NCBI GenBank assembly: GCA_965207065.1 | Contig: OZ242260.1 | Coordinates: forward strand, 4,128,001 to 4,192,000 | DNA length: 64,000 nt | Direction: 5' to 3' | DNA from: a bacterium | GTDB lineage: Bacteria > UBA8248 | Part shown: positions 5,256 through 64,000 of the stretch, in pieces | Numbering within the stretch: the stretch's first letter is position 1 | Layout of the letters: each line of letters begins with the position of its first letter | The notes under the pieces: generated by a model | What the model saw: only the letters and a program-made list of their open reading frames with translations | Told to the model about the DNA's origin: nothing | The model's database searches: none | Program-made: the position numbers and the translations under genes

Positions 5256-5290
5256 GTTCTAACCCTCCTATGAGATTACAATCACGTAAA

Positions 5291-7173: not shown

Positions 7174-7198
7174 TGGCGGCCCCTTCCAGAAATGGAAC

Positions 7199-8134: not shown

Positions 8135-8301
8135 AAGCACCCCTCCCCTTCATTCACAGTGATACAAAAAATATCCTGGAAGGATATCGTCAGGCGTCCA
8201 ATGAATCCCCGGGCAATTATCATCCGGTTATATGTTCTGGATTCGCCGTCGACTCTATCATCCAGGGACTTGAAGATCAAAAATCCACTTGTTGAATATA
8301 T

Positions 8302-9075
8302 TCAAGCAAGAACTGCGTTCACGAGCGCAGGCAACACATTGCCCGTTTTTCCTTGAATCCGTATGTCCGCTTTGGCATCGAAGCGTGTGGGGCCTTCGTT
8401 CACGATGATGAGGCGCGCCCCTGCTTTTCTGGCGCGCTCGGGCAAGCCGCCTGCCGGCCTGACCGCCAATGAGGAGCCGGCAACCAGGAATACTTCGGCC
8501 GCTTTGGATGCTTCAACGGCTCTGGACAACTTTTCCGGGGACAACCCCTCTCCGAAGAAAACAGCATCCGGCTTCAGCAAGCTCCCACAATCTTCACATT
8601 TTGGTATCGCTTCGCCGCCCTGAACCCGCGCGTGCACCTCGGGACGAGGCAATTTCGCTCCACACCCCACACAAACACATACATGACTCGTTCCGTGCAA
8701 CTCCACAACCTTTTCCGGATCATGACCCGCTTTTTGGTGAAGCCCATCCGTATTCTGCGTCACGAGCAATTTCAGGTGGCCGTGCCAGGACAACCTCGCC
8801 AGGGCAAAATGCCCAATGGAAGGCGGGGCGTTTCGAACCAAGTTGTACCCATCCTGAGCCACCTCCCAGTAGCGCCTTCGTATGTCCTCCGAAGCGAGCC
8901 AACGACGAATTTCGAAATCCTTCGGATCGAATCGATCCCAGATCCCACCTTTTGACCTGAAATCGGGAATACCGCTTTCGGTGCTAATGCCGGCGCCGGT
9001 AAGGCACACGGTCGAGTGAGATTCCACAACCCATGCCGCCGCTTGTTCGATGAGTTTTTCCTGGAAATCACCCAA
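8302..9075 (-). CDS. Sir2-family NAD-dependent protein deacylase
   Basis: TGAGISTESGIPDFR, TQNTDGLH, ELHG, two CxxC zinc pairs, GSSL; start trimmed to TTG 9075 behind a GGGGAAG RBS. Confidence 0.9.
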   Translation of the reverse strand: MGDFQEKLIEQAAAWVVESHSTVCLTGAGISTESGIPDFRSKGGIWDRFDPKDFEIRRWLASEDIRRRYWEVAQDGYNLVRNAPPSIGHFALARLSWHGHLKLLVTQNTDGLHQKAGHDPEKVVELHGTSHVCVCVGCGAKLPRPEVHARVQGGEAIPKCEDCGSLLKPDAVFFGEGLSPEKLSRAVEASKAAEVFLVAGSSLAVRPAGGLPERARKAGARLIIVNEGPTRFDAKADIRIQGKTGNVLPALVNAVLA

Positions 9076-9193
9076 TCTTCTTCCCCGGGTTGAAATAAAT
9101 AATAGCAATAACAACAATGAGATGTGAAATTCAGCCGCCAATTGATGTATGGTACGCAAGAATAGAGCATGTGCAAACAATAAGTGATGAATC

Positions 9194-10477
9194 GTGGGGA
9201 TAAGAAAATTGTCTGACGCGAAAAAGCACTTGTTCAGATTAACAACACTCTTCACTCTTCTCGCCTTGGGAATGGGCTTGTCCGGCTGTGCCGATTCCCT
9301 TCTTCCTAAGGTGAATGAAAGTTCCGTTAAAATCCTGAAAACCGCCATTGAAGTGGAATTTACCCAACTGACCAGAGAATTCGACCAACTCGACCAAAGT
9401 GGCGATCTGGAGCTTTGCGCTCCCCTGCGATTCGGAGTAGCGCGTTATGCCGTTTATCAGGCGGTAGAGGAGAAAAGAACCGCCTCTATGGCGCAACTGA
9501 CCCGATTCATCATGAGAGCGCGGGCGGCCATCAAGCGCGCAGAAGAGAAAATGCAAAAAAAACAATGTGTCGATAAGGATGGGGATGGACTCACTGACCT
9601 TACGGAATACCGGAAATATAAAACGAAACCTGATAATTTCGACACCGATGGGGATAACGTTTCCGATGGCGAGGAAATCCGCCGGTTTCGAACCAACCCC
9701 CTCAAAGCGGATACGGATGGCGATCTGCTCGACGATGGGGACGAGATATCACGCGGCTTGAGTCCGCTCCTCGCCGATAGCGATGGGGACGGATTCATCG
9801 ACGGCATCGAAATCGCCAATGGTTCGAACGCGCGCGATGCGTGTTCTCAGCCCCTGGATGCGCAAAATCTCGACCGTCTGCGCGAATGCGGCCCAAAACA
9901 GGTTCACGCCAAACCGGTTCAAGTTCAAACACCGCAAATACGAACTCCGTTGCCCGCACCCAAAGTAAAACAAAATTCGAAGAAGAAAAGGAAGCTCAAG
10001 GCGCAAAAACCGAAAACGAAGCCCTCCCCCAAGCCTCCCGGAGAACGAGCCTCAAACATCGAAAAAGTAAATTTCAAAGAGAGAAAAACAAAACCTACCC
10101 TCAATGGCAACGGCTCGCATCCTGAACGGAAAACTCAGGTGACTCGAAACCGCCAGGCCAGCGTGGACACTCCTGCAGACAAAGAGTCTCAAAATGAGAG
10201 CATAGATGCGAAAAGAAATCATCTTCCTGAGAAACCACAGAATGCAAATCTACACATCTTGAAGAAAGTGAATGCAGAGGGAGTACAATCAATAACAAAT
10301 CCCGAAGAATCACCGAGCCGCACACCCAATACGGCTTTACTCATGGAAAACCAAGGAAAAACGGATAATCCAGCTACGGTTCCGCCGACACCCGAACCTC
10401 CAAAGCCAGCGAAGAAAAAGAACTTTCCTTCTACGCATGAAGCCTTCCCCTCCACGATTTTTTTGAGGTTATGGTAG
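9194..10477 (+). CDS. Putative lipoprotein with DxDGDG calcium-binding (thrombospondin type 3-like) repeats and Lys/Pro-rich tail
   Basis: Lipobox LSGC; four repeats DKDGDGLTD, DTDGDNVSD, DTDGDLLDD, DSDGDGFID; low-complexity C-terminal half. Confidence 0.7.
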   Translation: MGIRKLSDAKKHLFRLTTLFTLLALGMGLSGCADSLLPKVNESSVKILKTAIEVEFTQLTREFDQLDQSGDLELCAPLRFGVARYAVYQAVEEKRTASMAQLTRFIMRARAAIKRAEEKMQKKQCVDKDGDGLTDLTEYRKYKTKPDNFDTDGDNVSDGEEIRRFRTNPLKADTDGDLLDDGDEISRGLSPLLADSDGDGFIDGIEIANGSNARDACSQPLDAQNLDRLRECGPKQVHAKPVQVQTPQIRTPLPAPKVKQNSKKKRKLKAQKPKTKPSPKPPGERASNIEKVNFKERKTKPTLNGNGSHPERKTQVTRNRQASVDTPADKESQNESIDAKRNHLPEKPQNANLHILKKVNAEGVQSITNPEESPSRTPNTALLMENQGKTDNPATVPPTPEPPKPAKKKNFPSTHEAFPSTIFLRLW

Positions 10478-10626
10478 AGTCAAACCTGATGTCTCTGGTA
10501 AATAGATACGCCTTAATCTTTGCGGCCACATGATGCGTATTATTCGGCGCCGAACGTTGAAAATTATCGCATTGCGATTTGTATTGTTTTCATCAGCTGG
10601 AGAAGAAGAGAATAGGAGAAAAGAAC

Positions 10627-12318
10627 ATGACGGAGCAGAAAACAGTCCTGAACCGATTTAGCCGGCGCATTACCCAGCCACCCTCGCAGGCCGCCTCTCA
10701 GGCTATGCTCTACGGTGCGGGTCTGGATGAAATCGACATGAAAAACCCCCAGATCGGTATCGCCAGCATGTGGTGGGAGGGAAATTCCTGCAATTTTCAC
10801 CTCAATCGGCTTGCCGAATACATCAAGCAAAGCGTGAACGCCGAGAAAAAAATGGTCGGACTCATTTTCAATACGATCGGAGTGAGCGACGGAATCTCAA
10901 TGGGCACGGAGGGTATGAAATACTCTTTGCAGTCTCGAGATCTCATTGCCGATTCGATCGAGACCGTCGTCGGCGCGCAATGGTATGACGCTCTGGTTAC
11001 ATTGCCCGGATGCGACAAGAACATGCCCGGCTCCATCATGGCCATGGCGCGGCTCAACCGGCCCAGCCTGATGGTTTATGGCGGCACCATCAGCCCTGGG
11101 TTTCTGAATGGAGACAAGCTGGACGTGGTCTCCGCCTTTCAAGCCTACGGCGAATACTTCTCAGATAAAATCGACGAAGAACGTTTCCAGTCGGTCATCC
11201 GGCATGCCTGCCCGAGTGGCGGTGCCTGCGGGGGCATGTACACGGCGAACACGATGTCCTCATCCATCGAAACGCTAGGCATGAGCCTGCCCTACAGTTC
11301 ATCGAATCCCGCCATGAGCGAGGACAAGAAAAACGAGTGTCTCGACGTGGGAAAAGCCATTTATCACCTGCTCGAAAACGACATCAAGCCCAGCGATATC
11401 ATGACAAGAGAAGCATTCGAGAATGCGATCACCATCATCATGGCGCTCGGCGGCTCGACGAACGCCGTCCTCCATTACATCGCCATCGCCAAGGCTGTCG
11501 GGGTCGAATTCACGATCGACGATTTTCAGGAAATCAGCGACAGGACGCCATATGTCGCGGATTTGAAGCCCAGTGGACAATTCGTCATGGAAGACCTACA
11601 CGACGTCGGCGGCGTACCGGCCGTCCAAAAACTTCTCTTGAAAGAAGGCCTGCTTCACGGTGATTGCCTCACCGTCACGGGCAAGACGCTCGGCGAGAAT
11701 ATCGAAGCCCTGCCCGACCTCCTTTCCGGCCAGAAGATCATCGTGCCGCTTGCCACCCCTATCAAGAAAACGGGACACCTCCAGATTCTCTACGGGAACC
11801 TCGCGAGTGAGGGCGCTGTCGCCAAGATTACAGGTAAAGAAGGCGAGCGCTACGAGGGCCCTGCGCGCTGCTTCGATTCCGAGGAAGACGCTCTCAAAGG
11901 ACTGGAAGAAAACAGAATTCAAAAGGGAGACGTCGTCATCATCCGCTACGAAGGACCCAAGGGCGGCCCCGGAATGCGGGAGATGCTGACGGTTACGTCC
12001 GCAATCATGGGAGCCGGACTCGGGAACGACTTGGCCCTCATCACGGACGGCAGATTCTCAGGTGGCACGCATGGTTTCGTCGTCGGACACGTCACGCCCG
12101 AAGCCCAAACCGGTGGTCTGCTAGCTCTCATTGAAGACGACGATATTGTTTTGATTGACGCCCAGAACCGCGTCATGGAGCTTAAGTTGCCCGAGGAAGA
12201 GATAAAGCGGCGACGGCAGAACTGGAATGCACCCCCGATAAAATTCACGAAAGGTACACTCTACAAGTACGCCAAGTGCGTATCTTCCGCGTCGGAAGGA
12301 TGCGTGACGGACGAGTAG
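10627..12318 (+). CDS. ilvD: Dihydroxy-acid dehydratase
   Basis: [42 protein letters not shown] and TDGRFSGG motifs. Confidence 0.95.
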
Positions 12319-44292: not shown

Positions 44293-44322
44293 TCCTTCTC
44301 CTTGGCCAACATTCCCTTCTTT

Positions 44323-45009
44323 TCAACCCCCCGATACTCTCGCCAGAATCTCGCGGTAGCCCTCATACACCGCCTCCCCGTAGGCAGGCGGGGCGTGGAC
44401 CTCGGTGAGCTTCCCGCCCTCTATCGTCTTATCCGAAGCGTACGGGTTGAAGACGGCTTCCCCGCCCGGGAAAATGAGGGTGGGGCTGGTCATCGGCATG
44501 TCCTCTTCGTCCCTCAGGCGCATGGCTTCTCTGTAGTCATCCATCACGCCCTCCTCGTATGCGCCCGATTCCAGGTCTGCGCGCACTTTGGAGCCATCGA
44601 GACCCGCTTCTCCCGCCATCTCGCAAAGAACCGCGTCCTCATCCACGCGTTTTCCCTCGTAGAAGAAACCGCGCCTGATCGCGAGATCGTAGACGCGCGC
44701 CTTTTCGGGGTCCTGCGCGTATGCGCTCGCGTAGGCCTGAAAGGCGCGGATGGTTGTCCTCAGGTATTCCTCGTGCGGCCAGCTTCTGCACGGCGAGAGC
44801 GGCTCCTGAACCGCTATCAGGGGCCATTCCTGATCCACGATGTAGCGCGGCGCCGGGCGGTCGTTGATGACCTCCAGCGGAAATGCGCGCCATTTGAGAT
44901 GCAGTTTGTCCTCGAACTCGGGCATCACCTTGTCCAGCCGCGCCGCGGCCATATACGCCCAGGGTCAGTGGTATTCGTGAAAAATCTCGACAACCGCCGT
45001 ATCCGCCAT
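44323..45009 (-). CDS. Putative DsbA-family selenoprotein (UPWA), Sec15 from TGA 44965-44967
   Basis: GAGGG RBS then MADTAVVEIFHEYH-TGA-PWAYM in frame with the 44323..44952 ORF; WRAFPLE and SPTLIF motifs. Confidence 0.8.
44935..44951 (-). promoter_or_regulatory. SECIS-like hairpin
   Basis: TGGCCGC-GGC-GCGGCTG begins 13 nt after the UGA. Confidence 0.5.
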
Positions 45010-45185
45010 CTCATGCCCTCACTCGCAAGAAGTCTTATGATGAAATCAGGACGGGAAGCATTCTCTCCCCTCCCCGATGATTTACACCCCGGATTCATCG
45101 AGGGCAAGTTGTTTCCCAACCACCTCTGCCTCATGCGCTCGATAAAAGCTGTGGTATCATGCCGAAAATCATGGAGACCGCCGGA

Positions 45186-45602
45186 ATGAACCCTGAGGAT
45201 CAGCTACTCGCCACCATACTCGCAGGCGCCGAGACCATCGCCGTGATCGGTCTATCGGTCGACCCCTCGCGCACGAGCCACCGAATCGCCTCGTATATGC
45301 AGGAGGCGGGTTACCGGGTCATCCCGATAAATCCCGGAATCGAATCCGCCCTCGGCGAGAAGGCCTATCCCAGCCTGGGCGAAGTCACCGAGCGCATCGA
45401 CATCGTGAACGTCTTCCGGCGTTCCGAGGAGATACCCGCTCTTGTGGATGACGCCATCGAGAAGCGCCCGCGCGTCTTCTGGATGCAAAAGGGCATCGCC
45501 CATCCCGGCTCCGCGCGCCGCCTGGAGGATGCGGGCATCACGATGATTCAGAACCTCTGCATCAAGACCGCCCACCGGGAACTCACGCAAACCCCTCGAT
45601 GA
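45186..45602 (+). CDS. CoA-binding protein (YccU-like)
   Basis: IAVIGLS, GYRVIPINP, DIVNVFRRSE and FWMQKGI motifs; start uncertain (45159-45186). Confidence 0.85.
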   Translation: MNPEDQLLATILAGAETIAVIGLSVDPSRTSHRIASYMQEAGYRVIPINPGIESALGEKAYPSLGEVTERIDIVNVFRRSEEIPALVDDAIEKRPRVFWMQKGIAHPGSARRLEDAGITMIQNLCIKTAHRELTQTPR

Positions 45603-45663
45603 GAATGGGCCGCTGCGAATCTCGCAAAAATTCCATCGCTACCTGCTCCTCGGCGCAGGCGCT

Positions 45664-46446
45664 TTGTTGGTCGTGGGAATGTTTGGATTTTTAGAGAATT
45701 TCCTGCTCTATCATCCCTACCGGGAAATCGAGGTCACGCCCAAAACCTATCGAATCGCGTATGAGGACGTCTCCTTCAACGCAGAAGACGGCGTGCGCCT
45801 GCACGGCTGGTACGTCGCGCCCAAAGACCCGGACGGTCCGGTGCTCCTGTGGACGCACGGCAACGCGGGCAACCTCTCCCACCGCGCGGAGAACATCGCG
45901 CTCATCCAGAAAGAACTGGGAGCGGGCGTCTTTATCTTCGACTACAGAGGATACGGGCAAAGCGAGGGACGACCGAGCGAGGAGGGCTTATACGCAGACG
46001 GCAGAGCCGCGTACGCGTGGCTCATCGAGCGCGTGCCGCACGAGCGCATCTTCTTGTTCGGGCGCTCCCTGGGCGCGGCCGTGGTGGTGAAGCTCGCCGT
46101 GGAAGGAAAGAAAGCGCGCGGCCTGATTCTCGAGAGCCCCTTCGAGAGCACCCTCGCCATGGGCAAGAAGATGTTCCCCTTCCTGCCGGTGGGGTGGCTC
46201 ATCTCCGCAAAATTCGACAGCGCGGCCATGATACCCAAAGTGAAGACCCCCCTATTCGTCCTGCATGGGGATAAGGACGGAATCGTCCCCTACGCGCAGG
46301 GGCTACGGCTCTTCGAGGCGGCGGGCTCAAAACACAAGCGGTTTTTCACCATCAAGGGAGCGGGCCACAACGACACGTATTACACCGGGGGCGCGCCCTA
46401 CTGGGCGGCGTGGCGGGAATTTCTGGGAAATCCCGAGTCAAGGTGA
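45664..46446 (+). CDS. Alpha/beta hydrolase (ABHD13-like)
   Basis: HGNAGN, DYRGYGQS, GRSLG, HGDKD and GAGHND motifs; true start may be a few codons upstream. Confidence 0.85.
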   Translation: MLVVGMFGFLENFLLYHPYREIEVTPKTYRIAYEDVSFNAEDGVRLHGWYVAPKDPDGPVLLWTHGNAGNLSHRAENIALIQKELGAGVFIFDYRGYGQSEGRPSEEGLYADGRAAYAWLIERVPHERIFLFGRSLGAAVVVKLAVEGKKARGLILESPFESTLAMGKKMFPFLPVGWLISAKFDSAAMIPKVKTPLFVLHGDKDGIVPYAQGLRLFEAAGSKHKRFFTIKGAGHNDTYYTGGAPYWAAWREFLGNPESR

Positions 46447-47244
46447 ATCGGGAGTCGGACCCGTCTTCCTGGCCCTGCGCCTCGATCGAAACTCCTGCAG
46501 CAGCCTTTCATGATGCACGCTCGTGAAGAAATTCTCGACGAACGAGTTCACCGGATGGTTGATGAGGTTCTCCGGCGTATCGACCTGGACGATCACGCCA
46601 TCACGCATCACGGCGATTCGGTCGGCGATCTGAAACGCATCCGTCAAATCGTGCGTCACCAGCAGGCTGATCGCCCCGATCTCGTCGTGCACACGTCTCA
46701 ATTCTTTTCTGACCTCGAGCCTCGCGACCGGATCGATGTTCGCCAGAGGCTCATCGAGAAGAAAAACCTGCGGGGGGATGGCGATGGCGCGGCCGATGGC
46801 GACTTTTTGCTGCTGGCCCGCGCTCAGGCTGTCCGGACTGCGGCGGGACCATTTTTTGCTGATCCCCAAACGCCGCATCACGTCCTGGGCGCGCTCGTTC
46901 AGGATGCCCGGCAACCAGCGGCGGATTTTGAGCGCGAAGCTCAGGTTCGAGTATTTCTTCTCGTCAAAAACCTTCATGTGCGGCCAGAGGGCGTAGCTCT
47001 GGAACACGAGCTGCACCCCGCGCCTTCCGGGCGGGATGCCGTTCAGCCGAACGCCATCGAGGTAGATATGGCCCGCATCTTCATCCTCCACGCCGGCGAT
47101 GAGGCGTAAGAGCGTCGATTTCCCGCAGCCCGTGGGACCGACGAGCACCATGAACTCCCTGTCCTCGAGCGCCAGGGAAAGGTTGTCGACCGCGCACACG
47201 TCGTCGAAATCTTTCTTGAGTCCCGTAACAGTCAGACGGCTCAT
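46438..47244 (-). CDS. ABC transporter ATP-binding protein (MalK/PotA-like)
   Basis: Walker A GPTGCGKS, signature LSAGQQQ, LLDEP, VTHD. Confidence 0.9.
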   Translation of the reverse strand: MSRLTVTGLKKDFDDVCAVDNLSLALEDREFMVLVGPTGCGKSTLLRLIAGVEDEDAGHIYLDGVRLNGIPPGRRGVQLVFQSYALWPHMKVFDEKKYSNLSFALKIRRWLPGILNERAQDVMRRLGISKKWSRRSPDSLSAGQQQKVAIGRAIAIPPQVFLLDEPLANIDPVARLEVRKELRRVHDEIGAISLLVTHDLTDAFQIADRIAVMRDGVIVQVDTPENLINHPVNSFVENFFTSVHHERLLQEFRSRRRARKTGPTPDSP

Positions 47245-47261
47245 GCCTCTCTCCGGTTCTT

Positions 47262-47618
47262 TCAGTCCTTCGGCGCGAGTTCGTTCAGCTTCTCGACGCC
47301 CGGCGTGAAGATTTCCTCCAGCACGAGCGGCCCATCGCCCGCGTTTCGCGTGGAGTGCTCCTGGTTCGGCGGAAAAACCACGACGCCGCCCGGCCCGAGC
47401 TCCACCTCTTTCCCACCGCACGTGAACCTAGCCCGTCCCTCCAGAACGATCGTCATCTGCTCGTTGGGATGCGAATGGGGGTTGTACATGTCCACGCCGG
47501 CGCGAATCGTCTGGCGAAGCACGGTCAGGCGCTCGCCCGCCACCACTCTCTGGATCCGCTCGCCGGTATCGTGCGCTGCCATCTCTTCGAAATGATAGTG
47601 TTTCACGCTCTTCTCCAC
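47262..47618 (-). CDS. Cupin domain protein
   Basis: PHSHPNEQ...FPPNQEH motifs. Confidence 0.85.
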   Translation of the reverse strand: MEKSVKHYHFEEMAAHDTGERIQRVVAGERLTVLRQTIRAGVDMYNPHSHPNEQMTIVLEGRARFTCGGKEVELGPGGVVVFPPNQEHSTRNAGDGPLVLEEIFTPGVEKLNELAPKD

Positions 47619-47752
47619 CTGAATGGATGAAACTTTACGAAAAATTTAAGCTCCGCTGCGGGAACCGCCTGATTCATCGTATAAAAGTATTTGCATCGGC
47701 TCAAACCTTCTCCTAAAGTGTACGAAGGCCGTCTTTTTACGAGGAGACCACC

Positions 47753-48277
47753 ATGAAGCGAACTCTCATATGCATCATCGCCATCGCATTGATCGCCGCG
47801 TTCTGGACCTTTCACCAGGCGGGCGCATCGGGACTCGGACCCGGCGCGCAAGCGCCCGAGCTCAAGGGCGGGCCCTGGATTGGCGGCGAGCCCGTCAAGC
47901 TCGAAGAATTGCGCGGCAAGGTCGTTCTCCTCGACATGTGGACGTTCGCCTGAATCAATTGCGTGCGGGAGATCCCCACGCTGCGTTCGTGGCACGAGCG
48001 CTATGAGGACAAGGGGCTGGTCGTCATCGGGAACCATGCGCCCGAGTTCAACTTCGACAGGAAAAAAGAAAACATCGAAGAGGCAATGGCCAAGCTCGGC
48101 ATCAAGTACCGCGTCGTGATGGACAATGACTTCACGAACTGGAACGCCTTTCAGAATCGCTTCTGGCCGACGAAATACCTGATCGACAAAAAGGGGATCG
48201 TGCGCTTCAAGACGATTGGCGAGGGCAACCACGAGCGCACCGAAGCGATGATCATGAAGCTACTCGCTGAAAAATGA
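47753..48277 (+). CDS. Putative exported thioredoxin-fold (DipZ/TlpA-like) selenoprotein (UINC), Sec67 from TGA 47951-47953
   Basis: Signal peptide, LRGKVVLLDMWTFA-TGA-INCVREIP, GNHAPEF, WPTKYLIDKKG; the two ORF-track fragments are in frame. Confidence 0.9.
47961..47981 (+). promoter_or_regulatory. SECIS-like hairpin
   Basis: GCGTG-C-GGG-AGAT-CCC-CACGC; apical loop about 16 nt after the UGA. Confidence 0.55.
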
Positions 48278-55305: not shown

Positions 55306-55380
55306 TCCGGCGTAGCTCAACGGCAGAGCAATCGGCTGTTAACCGATGGGTTGTAGGTTCGAATCCTACCGCCGGAGCCA
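55306..55380 (+). tRNA. tRNA-Asn (GTT)
   Basis: TCCGGCG/CGCCGGA acceptor stem, ATCGG-CTGTTAA-CCGAT anticodon arm, GGTTCGAATCC T-loop, encoded CCA. Confidence 0.95.
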
Positions 55381-55405
55381 AAGTTCTTTGTGGTTTATCC
55401 CACAC

Positions 55406-55756
55406 TTACGCTTCATACGCCTTCGAGACGAAATCCGAGAGCGCCTCTTTCACGAGGGCGTTCATGCTCCGGCCACGCAGGGCTGCAATGCGGGCGATTT
55501 GCTCATGAAGTTCCGCTCCCGGTCGAACGTTGAATGAACCGCTATAGGGCTTGTTCGGCGCGATTCCTTCAGTCTTGCACGTTTCCAGATAATCATTCAC
55601 TGAATCCTGAAACGCTTTCTTCAACTCTTTGGCGGTCTCAGCTTCGTACGTAATCAAATCACGCACATGGAGCACCTTGCCATGCAAGATTTCGCTTTCC
55701 TCGTCATATTCAATGGATCCCTGATAATTCTTGTACCTCAATACCGCTCCGATCAT
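55406..55756 (-). CDS. hicB: HicB family antitoxin
   Basis: YKNYQGSIEY, FQDSVNDYL and KPYSGSFNVR...LH...SMNALV motifs; start 55756 or 55801. Confidence 0.9.
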   Translation of the reverse strand: MIGAVLRYKNYQGSIEYDEESEILHGKVLHVRDLITYEAETAKELKKAFQDSVNDYLETCKTEGIAPNKPYSGSFNVRPGAELHEQIARIAALRGRSMNALVKEALSDFVSKAYEA

Positions 55757-55818
55757 CTTTGGCCCCTTTCCATCCTCGTGATCAAATCTGTTTCCCTGCA
55801 TTTCCCTTCAGATGAATT

Positions 55819-56073
55819 TCACAACAAACCACCTTCCTCCAACTTCTTTCTTACCTCGCGTATGATATATGGCTTCAACTTGTCTTCGGCATGGGGTTGG
55901 TGAAGGAAAATCCGGGGAGCCAACGAGTGAATGAACTTTCGCCGGGAGCCACCCGTTCTTCCTCCCATTGACTGCCTATAACCCAACCCCTCCAATAACA
56001 GAACCAATTCGTTCCAAGTGAAATTCTTCGGATTCTTTCTGAATTTATTCAGCAGCTTTTCGTGTTTGCTCAT
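55819..56073 (-). CDS. hicA: HicA family toxin
   Basis: FTWNELVLLL, GGSRRKF and LHQPH...LKPY motifs; upstream of hicB. Confidence 0.9.
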   Translation of the reverse strand: MSKHEKLLNKFRKNPKNFTWNELVLLLEGLGYRQSMGGRTGGSRRKFIHSLAPRIFLHQPHAEDKLKPYIIREVRKKLEEGGLL

Positions 56074-56126
56074 TGTTCCCTTGTCAATTTATCAGCAGAA
56101 CAAACATTATGACGCACCTATTATTC

Positions 56127-56177
56127 AGTTGCATTATAGAGCAAACTTGCGGGAATGCAACTATATTATCGTTGCAT
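56127..56177 (-). promoter_or_regulatory. hicAB promoter overlapped by an operator palindrome
   Basis: Minus strand TTGCAT-16nt-TATAAT; palindrome ATGCAAC-9nt-GTTGCAT at 56155-56177 and a further GTTGCAT half site at 56128. Confidence 0.65.
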
Positions 56178-56317
56178 AGATATTCAAGCGTGGATATTCA
56201 ATTTACAAATCAGGGATACTTAGACTCGACCCGGAACAACGACGAGCGCGAAAGAAAATTCTATATGGGACACTCACCCCACACTACTGGTACTTTCCTT
56301 CTTCCAGTCGATTCCCC

Positions 56318-57445
56318 TCAAACGCCGCTTTTCGCTTCCTCCAGGGTAGCGACGTTCCTCGGGTGCGCATTGCGGCGGCGCTTGTCGACGCGGATTTGCA
56401 GGCGCGCTGCATCGGTGGGACTCAGGCCCGCTTCCTTCAGTTCGCTCCGGCTGAACCCCTTACCGGGCCGCCAGTTCCCACGGCCATCTCTTACGAGAGG
56501 GAGGTATCCGTTATCCGAGGGCTCTTCCGGCTGCACCAGAGGCGCTTCGGCGGCCACCGGGCCAGCCTCCTGCGCGCGCTCTTCGGGGATATCCGGTTCA
56601 GGTGTTGTCGCCTCCACGGCGCTTTCGGCTACCTCCGAGACGGCTTCTTCGTTTTCGAGTGGTAGTTCTTCCTTATCCGGCGACTCTTCCGGCGAGGCTT
56701 CCGATTCCGTCTCGGTCAGCGTCTCGAGATCGAGTCCATCTTCCTCATACGGCGCTGCATCACTCTGCGGCAACGGCTCATGCGGCGAGACATCCTTGAC
56801 CGGCGCCTCCGGGGGTTCCTCGGCCCCCTGAACGATATCGTCCATGGCTTCCGGATCACTCTCTTGAGGAGTTTCCGTCTCGGGCGGGGAAGTCTCAACA
56901 ACGCTTTCGAGCTGGAGTTCTTCAACTTCCTGAACAGGATCGTCCGCAGCTTCCGGATCGATTGCTTGAGAGAATCCCGGCTCGGGCGCAGACGCTTCCG
57001 CTACACTTTCCGCTGCGACTGAGAGTGCTCCATCATCTTGCTCAGACGTCTCCGCCTCACCCGGCGACGCTTCTGATTCCGTTTCGGTCAGCGAATCGAG
57101 TTCGAGGCCATATTCCTCGAACGGAGCGGCTTCAAGAGATGGTTCCGGCGCATCCGGCGTCTCATCCGAGACCGGCGCCGTCAATGATTCCAGGGCGGGG
57201 GCAGGACCGCTATCACCAGCGTCCGCTCCGTTTGCCGAATCCATGCGCGGCGGCTCATCGGCAGCCAGCAGTTCCAATTCTTGATGAGAGTCATAGCCGC
57301 TGTCCTCCGTATCTCCCGCCGTATAGGGAACTCCCGGCTCGATGGCCGAAGGAGGCGGAATTTCGTAAGTTTCTTCTTCCGGCTCGGCAGAGGTGGAACC
57401 CTTGCGACGCGTCATACGGCTCAAAAAATTTTTTCTCATGATCAT
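56318..57445 (-). CDS. Acidic low-complexity protein with C-terminal ribosomal protein L13e (eL13)-like domain
   Basis: C-terminal RPGKGFSRSELKEAGLS...RLQIRVDKRRRNAHPRNVATL resembles archaeal L13e; Glu/Pro/Ala-rich N-terminus with a 124-aa-period duplication. Confidence 0.75.
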   Translation of the reverse strand: MIMRKNFLSRMTRRKGSTSAEPEEETYEIPPPSAIEPGVPYTAGDTEDSGYDSHQELELLAADEPPRMDSANGADAGDSGPAPALESLTAPVSDETPDAPEPSLEAAPFEEYGLELDSLTETESEASPGEAETSEQDDGALSVAAESVAEASAPEPGFSQAIDPEAADDPVQEVEELQLESVVETSPPETETPQESDPEAMDDIVQGAEEPPEAPVKDVSPHEPLPQSDAAPYEEDGLDLETLTETESEASPEESPDKEELPLENEEAVSEVAESAVEATTPEPDIPEERAQEAGPVAAEAPLVQPEEPSDNGYLPLVRDGRGNWRPGKGFSRSELKEAGLSPTDAARLQIRVDKRRRNAHPRNVATLEEAKSGV

Positions 57446-57660
57446 GCCGCCCTCTTTGAGGTCAAAACCCGTTACGTGGAAAAATTAACGTCCAGATATT
57501 GCAGGGGCGGTAAAAGATGGGAGCAAACCAACATTTTCAGACTAGCGATTCCAAAGACTTTGTGTCAAGCGGCGCGCGTGTGCAGATGGGCCAGGGCGAC
57601 CACACAAAAGGGGAATCAGCGGAGACCGAGCGAGCATCACTTGTTCAAACCGAATACGGG

Positions 57661-57978
57661 CTACACATCCTTTTGATAGATCGTTTGCAGGTCTCGCTCG
57701 AGATCTTCGAGGTCGTATTGCACCGGCGTTTTGCGGGTGCGCGCATAGTCCATCATTTCCCACAGGGAAACCCCCGCATCGCGGGCGGCCCGCGCGAGGG
57801 TCACCTTCCCGTCCCCGTACAGGCGGGCGTAGTGCTCCAGCTTCCACTGACGGACTGCGCTCGACAGCAGCTTTCGCAGGGTGGTCGACCGGTCGGACTG
57901 CTCCACGTTCTCGATGAGTTCCAGTTCGCGGATCAATTCCAGGGGAAGCCTCGCACCCACCATTCGTTCTTTTTTCAT
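57661..57978 (-). CDS. UPF0175 family antitoxin with N-terminal RHH-like segment
   Basis: VGARLP...DRSTTLRKLL and LYGDGKVTLARAARDAGVSLWEM; ATG overlaps the PIN gene TGA. Confidence 0.8.
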   Translation of the reverse strand: MKKERMVGARLPLELIRELELIENVEQSDRSTTLRKLLSSAVRQWKLEHYARLYGDGKVTLARAARDAGVSLWEMMDYARTRKTPVQYDLEDLERDLQTIYQKDV

Positions 57979-58490
57979 CTCTTCCCCTCTCGTGCAATTC
58001 TCAGAACTTCCGCCACCACGGACGGGGAAAGCCACAAAAATTGAGTGATATCCTGAACCGTGACTTCCAGTTTCTCCAGGTCGAGATGTCCACGCATGTA
58101 CGCTTCCAACAATGCGCCGATGGTGCCCAAGTGTTCAATTCCCGCAGCGGCGGCCACGCTGCGTGCTTCTTTGTCATCAACGAGCAGATGCAAGCTTCGC
58201 ACACTCGCAAGCGCGATGGATTCAGTCTCCCCTTGATCAAGCCGGGAACGAGCACCTAGTTGCTGCAACAGGTTCTGCTCTTCAGAAGTCAAACAAACCG
58301 TCTGCAGCCAACCATCTTCCATTGCGGCTTCGAGCTGCTCCACACCCAAGGCGCGAACAACCTTGCCGGCATCGATTGTTTCCTCCTTCACTACAGGCCC
58401 TATCAACACCTCATCGTAGAGTTCTTTCAAGAGCCTCAGCCGACCAACCTTGGCAAATACGATCAAAGGGGAGGCATCGGCTACGATCAT
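57975..58490 (-). CDS. DUF3368 PIN-domain (VapC-like) toxin
   Basis: IVADASPLI, LDQGETESIALA, LLVDDKEAR and GTIGAL motifs. Confidence 0.85.
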   Translation of the reverse strand: MIVADASPLIVFAKVGRLRLLKELYDEVLIGPVVKEETIDAGKVVRALGVEQLEAAMEDGWLQTVCLTSEEQNLLQQLGARSRLDQGETESIALASVRSLHLLVDDKEARSVAAAAGIEHLGTIGALLEAYMRGHLDLEKLEVTVQDITQFLWLSPSVVAEVLRIAREGKR

Positions 58491-58615: not shown

Positions 58616-59377
58616 TCATCCCACCTCACCCGCGAGTTCCTCGGCGGTTTTGATGATGAGTTCGATGTCCGCATCCCGCGAGAGACGGTGGCCGCCGTCC
58701 TTGACGAGGGTCAGGCGAACGTCGTCGCCTTTCAAGGCCCTCGCCAATTTCAGGGAAACCTCCCAGGAGACGGTCTCATCGGCCATTCCGTGGATGAGGC
58801 GCACCGGGCATGTCACATCGATCTCGCCGCGCAGGAGCAGGTGGTTGTCCCCCTCATCGAGCAGCTTTTTGGTGACGCGGTACGGCTCCTCCCAGATGTT
58901 GGGCGCGTGCATGACGAATCCGCGCTCGTCGAGTTCTCTCCGCATCTGCTCGGTGAGCCTGTGCTTCTTGAAGCCCGCCGTGAAATCAGGGCCCGACGCT
59001 ATGCCCACCAGGCCCTTCACGCGTTCGGGTCGGGCGAGTGCGGCGAGCAGCATCATCCAACCGCCCATGCTGGAACCCACGAGCACCTGGGGACCCTGCG
59101 CGACTTCGTCCAGCACCGCGAGGGCGTCCCCCGCCCATTCGCCGATGGTTCCGTCCTCGAAATTACCCGAGGATTCCCCGTGTCCGCCGTAATCGAAGCG
59201 GACGTAGGCGCGGCCCACTTTCCGGCAATGGGCTTCGAGCGCGCTCGCCTTCGTCCCGCTCATGTCCGAACGGAACCCGCCCAGGAACATCAGGCCGGGC
59301 GATTCGCCTTCCAGACGGAACCAGGCGAGCGAAGTCCCGTTCTCCCTGTGCAGAAACTTTGATGCGGAGTCGGACAT
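58616..59377 (-). CDS. Alpha/beta hydrolase (ABHD10-like)
   Basis: GGFRSDMSGTKA, DYGGHGES, GSSMGG and GGHRLS motifs. Confidence 0.9.
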   Translation of the reverse strand: MSDSASKFLHRENGTSLAWFRLEGESPGLMFLGGFRSDMSGTKASALEAHCRKVGRAYVRFDYGGHGESSGNFEDGTIGEWAGDALAVLDEVAQGPQVLVGSSMGGWMMLLAALARPERVKGLVGIASGPDFTAGFKKHRLTEQMRRELDERGFVMHAPNIWEEPYRVTKKLLDEGDNHLLLRGEIDVTCPVRLIHGMADETVSWEVSLKLARALKGDDVRLTLVKDGGHRLSRDADIELIIKTAEELAGEVG

Positions 59378-59384
59378 TTTCGTT

Positions 59385-59918
59385 TCAGGATGAATTGTTG
59401 AGATGTTCGAGCAACTGCGCGGCGACGCCGCGGACGGCGGCTTCCGCTTCCTCGTCCACGCAACGCCCATCCTCGTCGAAGACGTTGTGGACGCTCCCGA
59501 CCGAGGCCTGGCCGGGCAGAACCTCTCCGCCGATGTGGGTGAGAATCTGTCTCAGGTGCGCGAGGGCGTTGTCCGCACCCGGCCCCATCGCCACGCCGAA
59601 TATGGCGATGGTCTTCCCCTCGAAGGTGGAGGGATAGCCCAGGTTGTCGATCGCCAGCTTGAGCGTGCTGCTGATGCTGCCGTGGTACTCGGGCGTCGCG
59701 ATGAGGATGCCCGCCGCCTCCGTGACGAGTTGCTTGAGCATATCGGGGTCTTTCGAGTCGCTCGGCTGCCCGGGCAGGGGGAGATCGAGTTCGCCCAAGT
59801 GGATGCGGTTGATCTCGAAACCACCCTTTCCCAACTCATCGAGCGCGAGCGCAAGGGCTTTATCGGTATTGTTTTGCGGCCGGCGGCTGCCGCCGAAGAC
59901 GAGTATATAGGGGGTCAT
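59385..59918 (-). CDS. NAD(P)H-dependent FMN reductase
   Basis: GGSRRP and ATPEYHGSISSTLKLAID motifs; downstream of the LLM gene. Confidence 0.9.
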   Translation of the reverse strand: MTPYILVFGGSRRPQNNTDKALALALDELGKGGFEINRIHLGELDLPLPGQPSDSKDPDMLKQLVTEAAGILIATPEYHGSISSTLKLAIDNLGYPSTFEGKTIAIFGVAMGPGADNALAHLRQILTHIGGEVLPGQASVGSVHNVFDEDGRCVDEEAEAAVRGVAAQLLEHLNNSS

Positions 59919-59933
59919 TTCAGGGTTTTTCGA

Positions 59934-61040
59934 TTACGCAGCGACGCCGGCGGGCTCGGGCAGTATGACGGGATTGGTGTCCTTGAGAAGCGGCAGGACC
60001 TCCCTGCCGAAAATTTCCGCTTCTTCCTTGTGCGGCCACCCGTTCATGATGAAGTGCCGCACGCCCGCGTCGTAATACTCGCGGATGACGCTCGCCACCA
60101 TGTCCGGCGTGCCGACGAACATCGTTCCCGCGCCGCCGCGCACCTTGTTCACGCCCATCCAGATGGTATCGGTGAGCCAGAGGTTTCCGCGCGAACCCAT
60201 CTCGTTGATGCGCATCTGGCCGGTGGATTCGGTGTTGTTCTTCATGTCGCTCCAGGTGCCCGTGTTCGAGATGTCGCTCTTGTCGATGAGCGCCTCGGCG
60301 GCGCGCACCGCCTCTTCCCTCGTCTCGCGCACGCAGACCAGATGACGGATGCCGTAGCTCAGCGGACGCTCGCGCTCATAGGCCTGCGACTCGCGCTTTC
60401 CCTCCTCGATGTCTTTCCCGACGACTTCGGGTTCTGCCGCGTACATGACATGCACGTCGCCATGCTCCCAAGCCACGCGCTTGCCCGGGTCGGAACTGCC
60501 CGCCAGGAATATCGGGGGATTCGGCTTCGTCACCCGCTCGGGGAAGATGCCCGCGTTCTCGATTTCGAAGAATTTTCCCTTGTAGTCCAGCGGGCCGTCC
60601 GCGTTCCAGAGCTTGCGCACCACGTCCAAGAACTCGCCCGTGCGCGCGTAGCGATCGTCATGCGGCATGAAATCCCCGTATCTTTTCTGATCCACGGGCG
60701 TGCTGCCCGTTACCACGTTCAGGGTGCATCGCCCGCCGGTCAGGTAATCGAGGCTGTTCGCCTGCTGCGCCGCGTAGACCGGGCCGGTGATCCCGGGCCG
60801 GAAGGCCACGAGGAACCTGATCTTCTTCGTCCGGCTCGAAATCGCGCCCGCGGCCGTCCAGGCGTCGATGCAGTGCGTGCCGCACGGCACGAGGATGTTG
60901 GCGAAACCCGCCTCCTCGGCCGCCGTCGTGACTTCTGCAAGATAACCCAGGGTGGCGGGGCGATCGGGCGTCTTCTGGTTCACCTGCGTCCCGTCTCCCG
61001 CCCGGTGGGAGCAAAGTGCCCAGATATATTCGGTGGACAT
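59934..61040 (-). CDS. LLM-class flavin-dependent monooxygenase (SsuD-like)
   Basis: AAEEAGF, FLVAFRPG, LNVVTG, HDDRYARTGEF, AGSS and VGTPDMVA motifs. Confidence 0.85.
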   Translation of the reverse strand: MSTEYIWALCSHRAGDGTQVNQKTPDRPATLGYLAEVTTAAEEAGFANILVPCGTHCIDAWTAAGAISSRTKKIRFLVAFRPGITGPVYAAQQANSLDYLTGGRCTLNVVTGSTPVDQKRYGDFMPHDDRYARTGEFLDVVRKLWNADGPLDYKGKFFEIENAGIFPERVTKPNPPIFLAGSSDPGKRVAWEHGDVHVMYAAEPEVVGKDIEEGKRESQAYERERPLSYGIRHLVCVRETREEAVRAAEALIDKSDISNTGTWSDMKNNTESTGQMRINEMGSRGNLWLTDTIWMGVNKVRGGAGTMFVGTPDMVASVIREYYDAGVRHFIMNGWPHKEEAEIFGREVLPLLKDTNPVILPEPAGVAA

Positions 61041-61274
61041 CTCTCGTCTCCTCGGCGCCTCCCACACCTGCGGGGTGCGCACATGGGAAGAAGTCCAAAA
61101 ACCTCATCCGGAACAAGTTCAACAAGATAATGCCAACGCCATCATGAATCAAGCCCGTAAACCGGCTCCGAGGCGGGGCTGTTGAAAAAGCTCCTTCTCG
61201 ATCGCAATTCACCTCCACCAGCTCAGTTGCGAGTTTCGCACTTGAACGGTATTGCCAACCGAAAGAGAGAAGAG

Positions 61275-61647: not shown

Positions 61648-62238
61648 TCAGGGCGCTTTCTCCAGAACGACCATGTAGCGGCGCTCGCGCCTGCGCTCGA
61701 CGATGACGTTGCGGCGCTCCATCCCGTGCCCCGGCAGGCGCAGCCACATAGAATACTCGCCCGGGGCGAGGTCCGTCACCTCGATCGCCGGGGAGGCTTT
61801 GCCGTAATACCGGCTCCCGATGAAGACCTCCGCGCCCGGCGGGTCCGAGCGGACAACGAGGCGGCCGGCGCCGTCTTTCGCCAGTCTAATCTCGATGGGC
61901 GTCTTCTTCGTACGCACGTCGACTTCGACAACCTGGCCGACGTAGCCCGGGAACTCCACCCGAATCGAATGACGCCCGTAGTCCACGCCCTTGATCTCGA
62001 CGGGCCTGAGTCTATAGGTCTCTCCCCGCGGATTTCCGTTAAAGATGACGAAGGCGCCCTCGGGCTTGCTCGTCACGACGATTTCGCCCTTGCCGCTGCG
62101 CGGGGCTTCGGCGGCTTTTTTCCCCCGAGCGCACCCCGCACCCGACGCCAGGGTGAAAATGGCGAACAAAACGAGAATTGAATGGAAAAAGCGCTTCGGC
62201 GGCCAAATTGAAGCGAATAATTTGTATTGCATGCTCAT
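61648..62238 (-). CDS. PEGA domain protein, possible lipoprotein
   Basis: Two PEGA repeats (VTSKPEGAFVIFNG; VRSDPPGAEVFIG) after a hydrophobic segment ending in AGC. Confidence 0.8.
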   Translation of the reverse strand: MSMQYKLFASIWPPKRFFHSILVLFAIFTLASGAGCARGKKAAEAPRSGKGEIVVTSKPEGAFVIFNGNPRGETYRLRPVEIKGVDYGRHSIRVEFPGYVGQVVEVDVRTKKTPIEIRLAKDGAGRLVVRSDPPGAEVFIGSRYYGKASPAIEVTDLAPGEYSMWLRLPGHGMERRNVIVERRRERRYMVVLEKAP

Positions 62239-62404
62239 CCCTCCTGTCGCGCGAGTCCTGAGCCATCGTGCAATTTACCTTGTTTGGCGCATGAGGGGAA
62301 GCCGCCTCCATGGATAACCCTTCGTGCGCTTGCCGATTGCCCGCCCATGAGGAATGATGCGCATGGATTCCACAAAACTTACATCCAAGGGAGAAGATTT
62401 CAAG

Positions 62405-64000
62405 ATGCGAGGCCACCTGAGAGGACTGACGAACTATGGCGATCCGGGCTTCAGCGTTTTCGCAAGAGGCGCTTACGCACGGGGGTTCGGCCTGACGAAA
62501 GAGGACCTGGATAAGCCCATCATCGGCATCGCCCAGACCTGGAGCGAACTCAACCCGTGCCATCGCCATTTGCGGGAGATCGCCGAGGCCGTGAAGCGCG
62601 GCGTCTGGCAGACGGGCGGCCTGCCGCTGGAATTTCCCACCATCTCCCTGGGCGAGATGTACTTGAACCCCACGGCCATGTTCTTCAGGAACCTCCTCTC
62701 GATGGATACCGAGGAGATGATCAAGGGCCAGCCCATGGACGGCGTGGTGCTGCTCGGCGGCTGCGACAAGACCCTGCCTGCACAGCTCATGGGCGCGGCA
62801 AGTGCTGGGATTCCCGCCATCTGCGTGACGGCGGGGCCGATGATCGGCGGACGCTTCGAGGACAAGGTGCTGGGCGCGTGTTCGGACTGCCGCGGCACGT
62901 GGGCCGAATACCGGGCGGGCAACTACGACGACGAGCGGCTCGAAGAAGTCCAGGGATCGCTCTTCCCATCCACGGGAACCTGCATGGTGATGGGAACGGC
63001 GAGCACGATGGCGTCGCTCACCGAGGCAATGGGCATGATGCTGCCCGGACTCGCGGCTGTTCCGGCGGTGAACTCGAACCGAATCCGCCTCGCAGAGTAT
63101 AGCGGGCGGCGCATCGTCGACCTGATCGAGAAGGACATCACGCCCGACAAGATCATCACGCGCAAGGCGTTCGAAAACGCCATCCGCGTGCTCATGGCCG
63201 TGGGCGGTTCGACGAACGCCGTCGTCCACCTGCCGGCCATCGCCGGACGGCTGGGGATTGACCTTCCGCTTTCGCTGTTCGATGACATCTCACGCACCAC
63301 GCCCATGATCGGCAACATCCGGCCATCGGGCAAGAAATACCTGATGGAAGACCTGGCGGCGGCGGGCGGCATCCCCGTGGTGATGAAAGAACTTGAACCC
63401 CTCCTCCACGGGGACTGCCTGACGGTGACGGGAGAGACCGTGACCGAGAACCTCAGTAAAGTCCAAGGGGCGCAGCCCTGGCAGGACGTCATCTACACGC
63501 GGGAGAAACCGATTTCGGAAGAAGGCGGCCTCGTCATCGTGAAAGGCTCGCTCGCGCCCGATGGAGCGGTCATCAAGATATCGGCGGCAAACTCCGACCT
63601 GCTGACGCACACGGGGCCTGCGGTCGTATTCTCATCCCAGCAGGACCTCGTCGAGCGGATCGACGACCCCGACCTCCCCGCCACGGCGGAGAGCGTATTC
63701 GTGCTCCAGAACACAGGCCCCATCGGCGCGCCCGGCTTCCCGGAGGCAGGCTCCATGCCCCTTCCCAAGAAGCTGCTCGAAGCGGGCGTGCGCGACGTGG
63801 TGCGCGTATCGGACGCGCGCATGAGCGGAACGGCGTCGGGGACCATCGTCCTGCACGTGGCGCCCGAGGCGGCGGCGGGCGGCCCACTCGCCCTGGTCCG
63901 GGACGGGGACATGATCACCCTGGACGTTACCAACCGAAGGCTCGACCTGAACGTCCCCGAAGAAGAACTCACACGCCGCCGCGCCTCTTTAGAGACGCTC
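62405..64000 (+). CDS. IlvD/Edd family dehydratase (sugar-acid dehydratase-like), 3'-partial
   Basis: Not in ORF track because it runs off the window; MRGHLRGLTNYGD...NPCHRHL...GGCDKT...GTCMVMGTASTM...GGSTNAVVH...SDARMSGT. Confidence 0.9.
   Translation, partial: MRGHLRGLTNYGDPGFSVFARGAYARGFGLTKEDLDKPIIGIAQTWSELNPCHRHLREIAEAVKRGVWQTGGLPLEFPTISLGEMYLNPTAMFFRNLLSMDTEEMIKGQPMDGVVLLGGCDKTLPAQLMGAASAGIPAICVTAGPMIGGRFEDKVLGACSDCRGTWAEYRAGNYDDERLEEVQGSLFPSTGTCMVMGTASTMASLTEAMGMMLPGLAAVPAVNSNRIRLAEYSGRRIVDLIEKDITPDKIITRKAFENAIRVLMAVGGSTNAVVHLPAIAGRLGIDLPLSLFDDISRTTPMIGNIRPSGKKYLMEDLAAAGGIPVVMKELEPLLHGDCLTVTGETVTENLSKVQGAQPWQDVIYTREKPISEEGGLVIVKGSLAPDGAVIKISAANSDLLTHTGPAVVFSSQQDLVERIDDPDLPATAESVFVLQNTGPIGAPGFPEAGSMPLPKKLLEAGVRDVVRVSDARMSGTASGTIVLHVAPEAAAGGPLALVRDGDMITLDVTNRRLDLNVPEEELTRRRASLETL

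Follow-up and report, generated by a model that had tools for sequence, protein, structure and literature searches.

An eL13-like domain at the end of a polyacidic protein in one Nitrospinota genus, with possible kinship to DruH-like proteins

The core of ribosomal protein eL13 is an rRNA-binding element that lies buried in the large ribosomal subunit of archaea and eukaryotes, and to our knowledge eL13 is absent from the ribosomes of bacteria. Its apparent presence in a bacterial gene raises the question of where such a domain came from and what it does there. The gene considered here lies on the minus strand of a 64,000-nucleotide stretch, hereafter the window (GenBank assembly GCA_965207065.1, contig OZ242260.1, positions 4,128,001 to 4,192,000; GTDB lineage UBA8248). 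An initial annotation, made from the letters of the DNA alone, had described the product as a basic L13e-like domain tethered to an acidic disordered arm of about 310 amino acids (aa), horizontally acquired or repurposed, which could act as a ribosome-associated factor or RNA chaperone. The explanation that we tentatively prefer, with a little less than even confidence, is that the protein is a stand-alone nucleic-acid-binding anchor on a polyanionic, motif-bearing arm, and that a role towards phage or mobile DNA is likelier than one as a constituent of the ribosome. The gene and its parts are the following.

56318..57445, minus strand: whole gene, 375 codons plus stop, taken from the list of open reading frames (ORFs)
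57439, minus strand: second in-frame ATG of the same ORF
57386..57445, minus strand: basic N-terminus, aa 1-20, with 6 K/R and 0 D/E (+6), delimited by composition and consensus
56516..57385, minus strand: polyacidic, proline-rich disordered arm, aa 21-310, with 87 D/E, 4 K/R and 41 P
56318..56506, minus strand: C-terminal eL13-fold domain, the last 62 aa plus stop, delimited by profile (hidden Markov model) match and predicted fold
56363-56473, minus strand: the Pfam match proper (PF01294), aa 325-361

The Pfam profile Ribosomal_L13e (PF01294) matches the protein with 33.9 bits (E 3.7e-8; aa 325-361 on profile positions 62-98 of 180), above its gathering threshold of 24.9 bits, and matches the last 70 aa alone with 37.9 bits. 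The NCBIfam model for archaeal L13e (PRK12277 / NF008914) gives 48.8 bits (E 3.9e-13; aa 324-370 on model positions 27-73 of 83), short of its equivalog cut-off of 96 bits. Among Protein Data Bank (PDB) sequences, 70 distinct ones were matched by phmmer at E<=1. The 60 listed are eL13 chains, except for two rows of IcmE/DotG in which no stretch qualified, and the best are a microsporidian eL13 (6rm3_LL0, 5.7e-7) and an archaeal one (9e6q_AH, 9.2e-7). The domain carries the signature R.G[KR]GFS..EL..AGL...A..L.I.VDKRRR..H..N, and what it has in common with eL13 is G[KR]GFS..EL..AG....A..L.I.VD.RR...H..N.

The structural comparisons were made with a predicted model of the domain, not a solved structure. 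AlphaFold2, given a 13-sequence alignment of the last 72 aa, predicts a beta-hairpin followed by three helices, with a predicted local distance difference test score (pLDDT) of 81.5, and this is also the core fold of eL13 (PF01294; archaeal PRK12277 and 9e6q_AH). In a Foldseek search of the PDB all 50 matches listed are eL13 chains of ribosome or pre-ribosome entries (TMq 0.57-0.72). When the model was aligned with 48,161 PDB representative chains by VIA-align, ranks 1-8 were all eL13 (Z 7.1-9.1) and rank 9 fell to Z 2.4; the superposition on eL13 of Pyrobaculum calidifontis (9e6q_AH) has Z 8.8, a root-mean-square deviation (rmsd) of 1.7 over 64 residues and 39% identity. The predicted fold of the domain is that of the eL13 core, with a match far beyond chance. 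The domain named in the initial annotation, consisting of the last 62 aa as quoted there, is thus upheld by profile, by predicted fold and by Foldseek, and composition and fold agree with a basic domain at the end of an acidic disordered arm.

The same closeness is what speaks for a ribosome-associated factor, in which the domain would dock on bacterial large-subunit rRNA as eL13 does, with the arm tethered to it, and would serve as an accessory, hibernation or stress factor or as an RNA chaperone. Core fold and signature are kept, the archaeal eL13 superposes closely, and the NCBI pipeline has put the name 'ribosomal protein L13e' on family members, as in the public annotation of the bacterial proteins P0017, P0020, P0076 and P0228 (one of these four is filed under a metagenome-assembled genome labelled Rhodospirillaceae, and a binning or labelling inconsistency is possible there). 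We nevertheless regard this explanation as unlikely. Both model matches are partial and the equivalog cut-off is missed. The architecture of a full-length eL13 is not found either: only the core of some 45-60 aa is present, at the C-terminus of a strongly acidic protein of 375 aa, and the other 310 aa are an arm that matches no family. Unlike eL13, the gene is bacterial, occurs in one genus only and lies outside any ribosomal gene cluster or ribosomal-protein operon.

The arm itself also sets the protein apart. Between aa 21 and 310 its net charge is -83, which is unlike ribosomal proteins, and aa 311-375 are basic again (+6); the acidic disordered arm of the initial annotation is therefore borne out by the 87 D/E against 4 K/R and the 41 prolines. 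In the 76 full-length family members the N-terminus follows the consensus M..KKNFLSRMTRRK, a conserved EIPPPSAIEPGVPYS block opens the arm, and the motif [YF]G.[DEGH][LFI][DE].L occurs in the arm of 75 of them, in 1-4 copies. The arm is the fastest-evolving part of the protein, with its short acidic-hydrophobic motifs retained, and the length of the family proteins, 230-541 aa, varies by gain and loss of repeats. Tandem Repeats Finder detected only one 12-nucleotide (nt) repeat of 2.3 copies, the protein repeats having diverged too far at the DNA level. Scans of the window protein with Pfam, NCBIfam and PADLOC gave no family besides the L13e models (for PADLOC, no match at E<=0.01), and a search of the ESM Atlas with the whole protein gave no usable match.

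The origin of the domain was approached through its relatives. A domain profile searched against 1.84 billion representative proteins gave 704 matches at E<=1e-3, of which the best 150, together with the matches of a further search, were classified. They fall into three classes: the Nitrospinota family to which the window protein belongs; small basic proteins (about 55-130 aa) that carry the domain close to the N-terminus; and many larger ones, of about 580-970 aa, that end with it. The matches outside the family that come nearest in score are proteins of 689-971 aa that carry it at the very C-terminus. All 10 small proteins tested matched the archaeal L13e model (56-121 bits), one of them above its cut-off. 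When the 71-aa domain was searched through a word index of proteins of 39-125 aa, the only matches were four fragments from its own family, and a named archaeal L13e was not among them.

A quick maximum-likelihood tree of the domain was built from 158 rows, comprising 56 small proteins, 77 long ones and 25 family members drawn at random from 102 (77 left out). In this tree the family, which encloses three long rows, neighbours a group made up of 64 long and 4 small rows, with a Shimodaira-Hasegawa-like approximate likelihood ratio test (SH-aLRT) value of 80; 52 small and 10 long rows lie on the opposite side. By distance the nearest rows outside the family are the long proteins P0093 and P0094. 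Moreover, the invariant residues of the family (R, G, GFS, E, D, RR, H, N) recur in 48 long proteins, where they vary hardly or not at all. These comparisons lend weak support to the view that the domain is kin to bacterial C-terminal domains of what we call DruH-like proteins and not to small, stand-alone, archaeal-type L13e. As for a 'horizontally acquired or repurposed' module, repurposing fits this picture, and the weakly resolved tree gives no indication of a direct donor among archaea or eukaryotes.

The long proteins are recognizable by the company they keep. A scan of species-representative genomes gave four distant loci, in records labelled Rhodothermales, Thermodesulfobacteriota, Gammaproteobacteria and Ca. 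Multivoraceae, and in all four the domain ends a protein of 764-930 aa whose stop overlaps the start of a protein of about 1400 aa. Together with a congener of the window's genome, described below as G007, this makes five loci in records of five phyla, all with the long protein (such proteins span 660-970 aa) immediately upstream of a compact DruE-like helicase, an arrangement like that of Druantia III-B antiphage pairs. The pairs, with helicases of 1404-1425 aa, are located as follows.

L041:3487-10393: DruH-like/DruE-like pair
L042:3382-10381: DruH-like/DruE-like pair
L043:3847-10374: DruH-like/DruE-like pair
L044:3901-10429: DruH-like/DruE-like pair
L049:~5000-11202: DruH-like/DruE-like pair

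The L041 helicase matches the Pfam families DEAD, Helicase_C and MZB, and has no PLD match. Both helicases scanned with PADLOC match its DruE1 model (E 5.6e-153 for L041 and 6.5e-160 for L042). Among the loci of the four labelled phyla and the Nitrospinota congener the helicases are 64-72% identical, which suggests horizontal spread. Two details may be mentioned here: the L043 helicase is split over two overlapping ORFs (6170-6874 and 6799-10374), with a frameshift or sequencing error being possible, and in the Rhodothermales-labelled record the pair is preceded, at a distance of about 1.4 kb, by an IS66-family transposase (L041:712-2043). A tblastn search with a long partner against 72,556 plasmids gave no match.

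In the long partners a short amphipathic N-terminal segment, basic and aromatic, leads into a long low-complexity region of acidic or polar character, which is followed by a core and then by the eL13-like tail. The core is predicted, with pLDDT 89, as a chain of beta-sandwiches resembling fragments of six immunoglobulin (Ig) domains of titin and contactin. Escherichia coli DruH has, according to a preprint, six Ig-like subdomains between a globular N-terminal domain and a C-terminal one, and single-stranded DNA (ssDNA) is gripped between Ig5 and the latter (bioRxiv 10.64898/2026.05.12.722862). The predicted layout of the long partners matches this description. In a further preprint, Druantia III-B is described as consisting of DruH and a compact DruE that lacks PLDs (bioRxiv 10.64898/2026.05.13.724758).

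The likeness stops at layout and position. E. coli DruH of Druantia III-A (STY4851/ECs_5259 family, L047:3501-6860) resembles the long relatives only: in both cases DruE follows immediately downstream, and a series of Ig-like subdomains ends in a C-terminal domain, which in E. coli helps to bind ssDNA according to the first of these preprints. In contrast, BLASTP of E. coli DruH against a long partner revealed no similarity (best E 0.10), it has no L13e match in Pfam, and hhalign of the domain profile against it gave a probability of 0.07%. A DruE neighbour from C. butyricum was likewise without similarity to the long partner, and PADLOC models matched none of the six long partners scanned. 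Because of this lack of sequence similarity and model matches to known DruH, the names 'DruH-like' and 'Druantia III-B-like' are used here by position and architecture and do not denote membership.

How, then, does the window protein relate to this family? Outside its own family, the DruH-like partners (L041-L044, L049) are the closest relatives of its C-terminal domain. They share its invariant residues, and the layout is alike: the N-terminus is basic or amphipathic, a disordered region of acidic or polar character follows, and an eL13-like domain forms the end. However, the window protein is without the multi-Ig core of about 450 aa, and no DruE lies adjacent to its gene or elsewhere in the genome. 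A search of the window's genome with a 930-aa long partner matched only residues 859-926 of the query, that is the C-terminal domain, and no match to DruE was obtained in that genome. The place immediately upstream of a DruE-type helicase, which the long proteins have in common, is thus not that of the window gene, whose neighbours are HicA/HicB and a UPF0175/DUF3368-like pair. Within the genus, DruE-like genes occur in 2 of 23 genomes (G007 and G009), neither of which has the short form, and no DruE-like protein was found in the genus genomes that carry the short form. A domain that is the most conserved part of the protein, and is conserved where DruE is absent, presumably has a ligand other than DruE.

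Whether the short form is a gene in its own right can be judged from its conservation. The exact 375-aa protein is present in public collections, in a 90% cluster of nine members. The window is part of a single contig of 4.48 Mb, and a contig from a different study covers 56308-57900 unbroken, with 38 differences. Using the domain profile, the short form was found in 17 of the 22 other genomes of the genus as well as in the window's own; it was not found in 4 of the 22 congeners. Elsewhere in the phylum, 28 genomes representing 14 genera yielded no short form, and scanning 41 relatives with Pfam led to the same result. Synteny is kept in all five congeneric loci compared, with a DctM or NAD-binding gene on one side and genes for an alpha/beta hydrolase, an FMN reductase and a luciferase-like protein on the other. 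The concern of the initial annotation that the segment might be a mis-assembled archaeal fragment is disposed of by the spanning contig, the fused ORF in 17 of 22 congeners and the syntenic site, so that mis-assembly and recent import are excluded.

The coding sequence itself is under constraint. The ratio of nonsynonymous to synonymous substitution rates (dN/dS) among 13 genus sequences has a median of 0.22 (78 pairs) over the domain core, the last 60 codons, and of 0.71 (74 pairs) over the 12 codons before it, and 33 of 72 columns of the C-terminal alignment of these sequences are invariant. The C-terminal domain is under purifying selection. Four nt 5' of the first ATG of the 56318..57445 ORF there is a Shine-Dalgarno-like stretch, AGAGGG, and '(K)EGG' is read just before the start in most of 13 orthologous open frames. 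The promoter and terminator scan yielded nothing usable: near the start, the sole promoter-like site coincides in part with the start codon, and a single weak hairpin resembling a terminator was seen at 56284-56263. These data are best explained by a functional gene that has been passed down vertically in one Nitrospinota genus.

Duplication has occurred as well. The gene is present in two copies on the window's contig, the second 1.9 Mb away. This paralogue, of 384 aa (G000:C1:2263984-2264193; L014:7982-9136, minus strand), lies in an unrelated neighbourhood, with no gene in common between the surroundings of the two copies, and is 47% identical to the window protein over 391 residues and 67% over the C-terminal 72 aa. 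In genome G011 there are three copies, two of them in short or split frames (115 and 149 aa around the domain, L020:6440-7562 and L021:5586-6859), which may be decaying duplicates.

The pattern of presence bears on two of the explanations. Since the gene is missing from 4 of the 22 congeners searched and from all 28 genomes searched elsewhere in the phylum, it does not belong to a conserved ribosome, and the nearest domain relatives are DruH-like tails beside helicases rather than ribosomal proteins. In favour of a ribosome factor, strong conservation, synteny and genus-wide occurrence are like those of a housekeeping gene. It may also be asked whether the short gene is a decaying Druantia III-B-like remnant, a DruH-like gene that has lost its Ig core and its DruE and has no function, or a residual one. 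The truncated-looking frames in G011 and the wide length range of the family would fit decay, as would the C-terminal domain and end-to-end layout in common with the long partners, and a congener has an intact pair in the same interval (see below). Against decay stand the intact ORFs in 17 of 22 congeners, the conserved N-terminus and arm motifs, the 33 invariant columns and the dN/dS of 0.22 in the domain, and the conserved Shine-Dalgarno-like stretch; moreover, the Ig core has left no sequence trace in the window's genome. We consider a remnant quite improbable.

The surroundings of the gene bear on the process in which it may take part. The features around it are the following.

55306..55380, plus strand: tRNA-Asn (GTT), found by ARAGORN, at the edge of the variable interval that holds the gene
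55406..56073, minus strand: HicB (55406-55801; Pfam HicB, 62.9 bits) and HicA (55819-56073; HicA_toxin, 37.5 bits)
57661..58490, minus strand: UPF0175 protein (57661-58035; UPF0175, 38.8 bits) overlapping a 171-aa ORF (57975-58490)

The 171-aa ORF matches DUF3368 with 17 bits, below the cut-off of 27.3, and with the UPF0175 gene probably forms a second toxin-antitoxin pair, upstream of the gene. Two toxin-antitoxin-like pairs thus flank the gene within 55306-58490; the pairs are present in only some congeners, with HicB orthologues in 3 of the 5 syntenic loci. The GC content falls to 0.43-0.51 over 55400-56400. The wider context is bacterial, as the initial annotation had it, with DctP/DctQ/DctM genes of a tripartite ATP-independent periplasmic (TRAP) transporter, tRNA-Asn and tRNA-Val. 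The remainder (59385-61082 and 61648-64000) is ordinary: an FMN reductase and luciferase-like monooxygenase pair, a PEGA-domain protein, and a dihydroxy-acid/6-phosphogluconate dehydratase that runs past the window end.

The corresponding site in the congener G007 (3.0 Mb, one contig) is instructive. This genome has no short form; instead, a DruH-like frame of 660 aa with an eL13-like tail overlaps a DruE-like gene of 1425 aa, the former being 42% identical to the L042 partner and the latter 69% identical to the L042 helicase. The pair directly follows a tRNA-Asn(GTT), upstream of which are orthologues of the window genes 44302-48277, and downstream it is followed by an M48 peptidase, a nucleoside transporter and then the orthologue of the alpha/beta hydrolase gene 58616-59470. 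In the window, HicB/HicA, the eL13-tailed gene and the UPF0175/DUF3368-like pair occupy the interval from tRNA-Asn to that same hydrolase gene. These matching flanks mean that the short gene and the DruH-like gene share one variable, tRNA-flanked interval. In the congener G009 (L050:4742-11498) a DruE-like helicase has an upstream partner of 796 aa with a similar N-terminus and an acidic tail and no eL13-like domain; a gap of about 200 nt separates it from the helicase ORF, and it is not beside a tRNA.

It is on account of this tRNA-adjacent variable interval, of the toxin-antitoxin genes on both sides and of the Druantia-like pair in the same interval of a congener that a role towards foreign or mobile DNA is favoured over one in translation. 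In the stand-alone anchor that we prefer, the C-terminal domain would hold a nucleic acid by its phosphate backbone, by analogy with the eL13 core on rRNA, and the contact may run through the invariant R/K-rich loop and the RRR segment. For the arm two possibilities can be envisaged. It may be a tethered polyanion that folds back on the basic domain, an autoinhibitory mimic of nucleic acid competing with the ligand, or it may be a flexible platform whose short linear motifs recruit partners to the bound nucleic acid or exclude them from it. HMGB1 and SSB are nucleic-acid-binding proteins with autoinhibitory acidic tails, and as in the window protein a small basic nucleic-acid-binding module is combined in them with a long polyacidic disordered segment. 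The analogy is one of composition: the folds are unrelated, and autoinhibition in the window protein would be purely hypothetical.

The arm motifs also allow a quite different explanation, namely that the protein is exported and directed at a host as a 'eukaryote-like' protein, with the eL13-like domain or acidic dileucine-like motifs (ELELL, LDLELL) mimicking eukaryotic proteins or sorting signals. Apart from such cases the domain family belongs to archaea or eukaryotes, the distribution is restricted to one lineage, and the arm has repeated acidic-hydrophobic motifs, which presumably resemble eukaryotic sorting signals. On the other hand, no hydrophobic, signal-peptide-like N-terminus is seen on inspection of the sequence by eye, no predictor having been run; the domain groups with the tails of cytoplasmic bacterial DruH-like proteins rather than with eukaryotic eL13, and its score is higher with the archaeal model than with that of Pfam, which is mainly eukaryotic. 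A host-directed role is very improbable in our opinion.

Several points weigh against the nucleic-acid anchor with a role towards foreign DNA, and against its kinship with DruH-like proteins. The tree rests on 71 columns, most of its forks are unresolved and its root is arbitrary, and the small proteins checked against the archaeal model number only 10. Binding of nucleic acid is argued by analogy with eL13 and with the C-terminal region of E. coli DruH, the latter without detectable sequence similarity. In addition, a stable, syntenic and genus-wide presence is more what one would expect of a housekeeping gene than of a gene typical of defence. The mutual exclusion of the short form and DruE is descriptive only, not statistical, since genomes of one genus are related. 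The short gene also lies on the opposite strand relative to tRNA-Asn as compared with the G007 gene, so that an origin by simple deletion in situ does not fit. Finally, hhalign of the N-terminal 45 aa of the short and long forms gave a probability of 1.8%. Homology of these N-termini, which had been considered, was dropped on this ground, and only the similarity in layout is kept.

A broader proposal can be built on the kinship of the domain, and we put it forward as possible, albeit somewhat doubtful. The eL13 core would be a widespread bacterial module, the nucleic-acid-sensing tail of an undescribed DruH family that goes with a compact DruE in at least five phyla. In one Nitrospinota genus it would have become detached onto a polyacidic arm as a new, DruE-independent protein, and with ribosomal eL13 it would go back to a common ancestral nucleic-acid-binding module.

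The bare observation of the domain is not new, since the label is already found in public annotation, although the name 'ribosomal protein L13e' is probably functionally wrong for these bacterial proteins. Full-text searches combining Druantia or DruH with L13e or eL13 gave no paper; supplementary tables of III-B DruH, which these searches did not cover, might list the domain. As far as the searchable literature shows, two things appear to be new: the eL13 core as C-terminal module of a DruH-like family paired with a compact DruE in several phyla, and its minimal, DruE-independent form on a polyacidic arm in one Nitrospinota genus. In a Druantia subtype that is as yet uncharacterised, the eL13-like tail is a candidate for the part that does the sensing. 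The short form can be regarded as a natural experiment, in which the domain, without Ig core or helicase, is still under purifying selection and should reveal its own ligand. The finding also bears on the origin of eL13 itself: if the proposal is true, a ribosomal protein of archaea and eukaryotes and a bacterial antiphage sensor would be tied to a common ancestral nucleic-acid-binding module.

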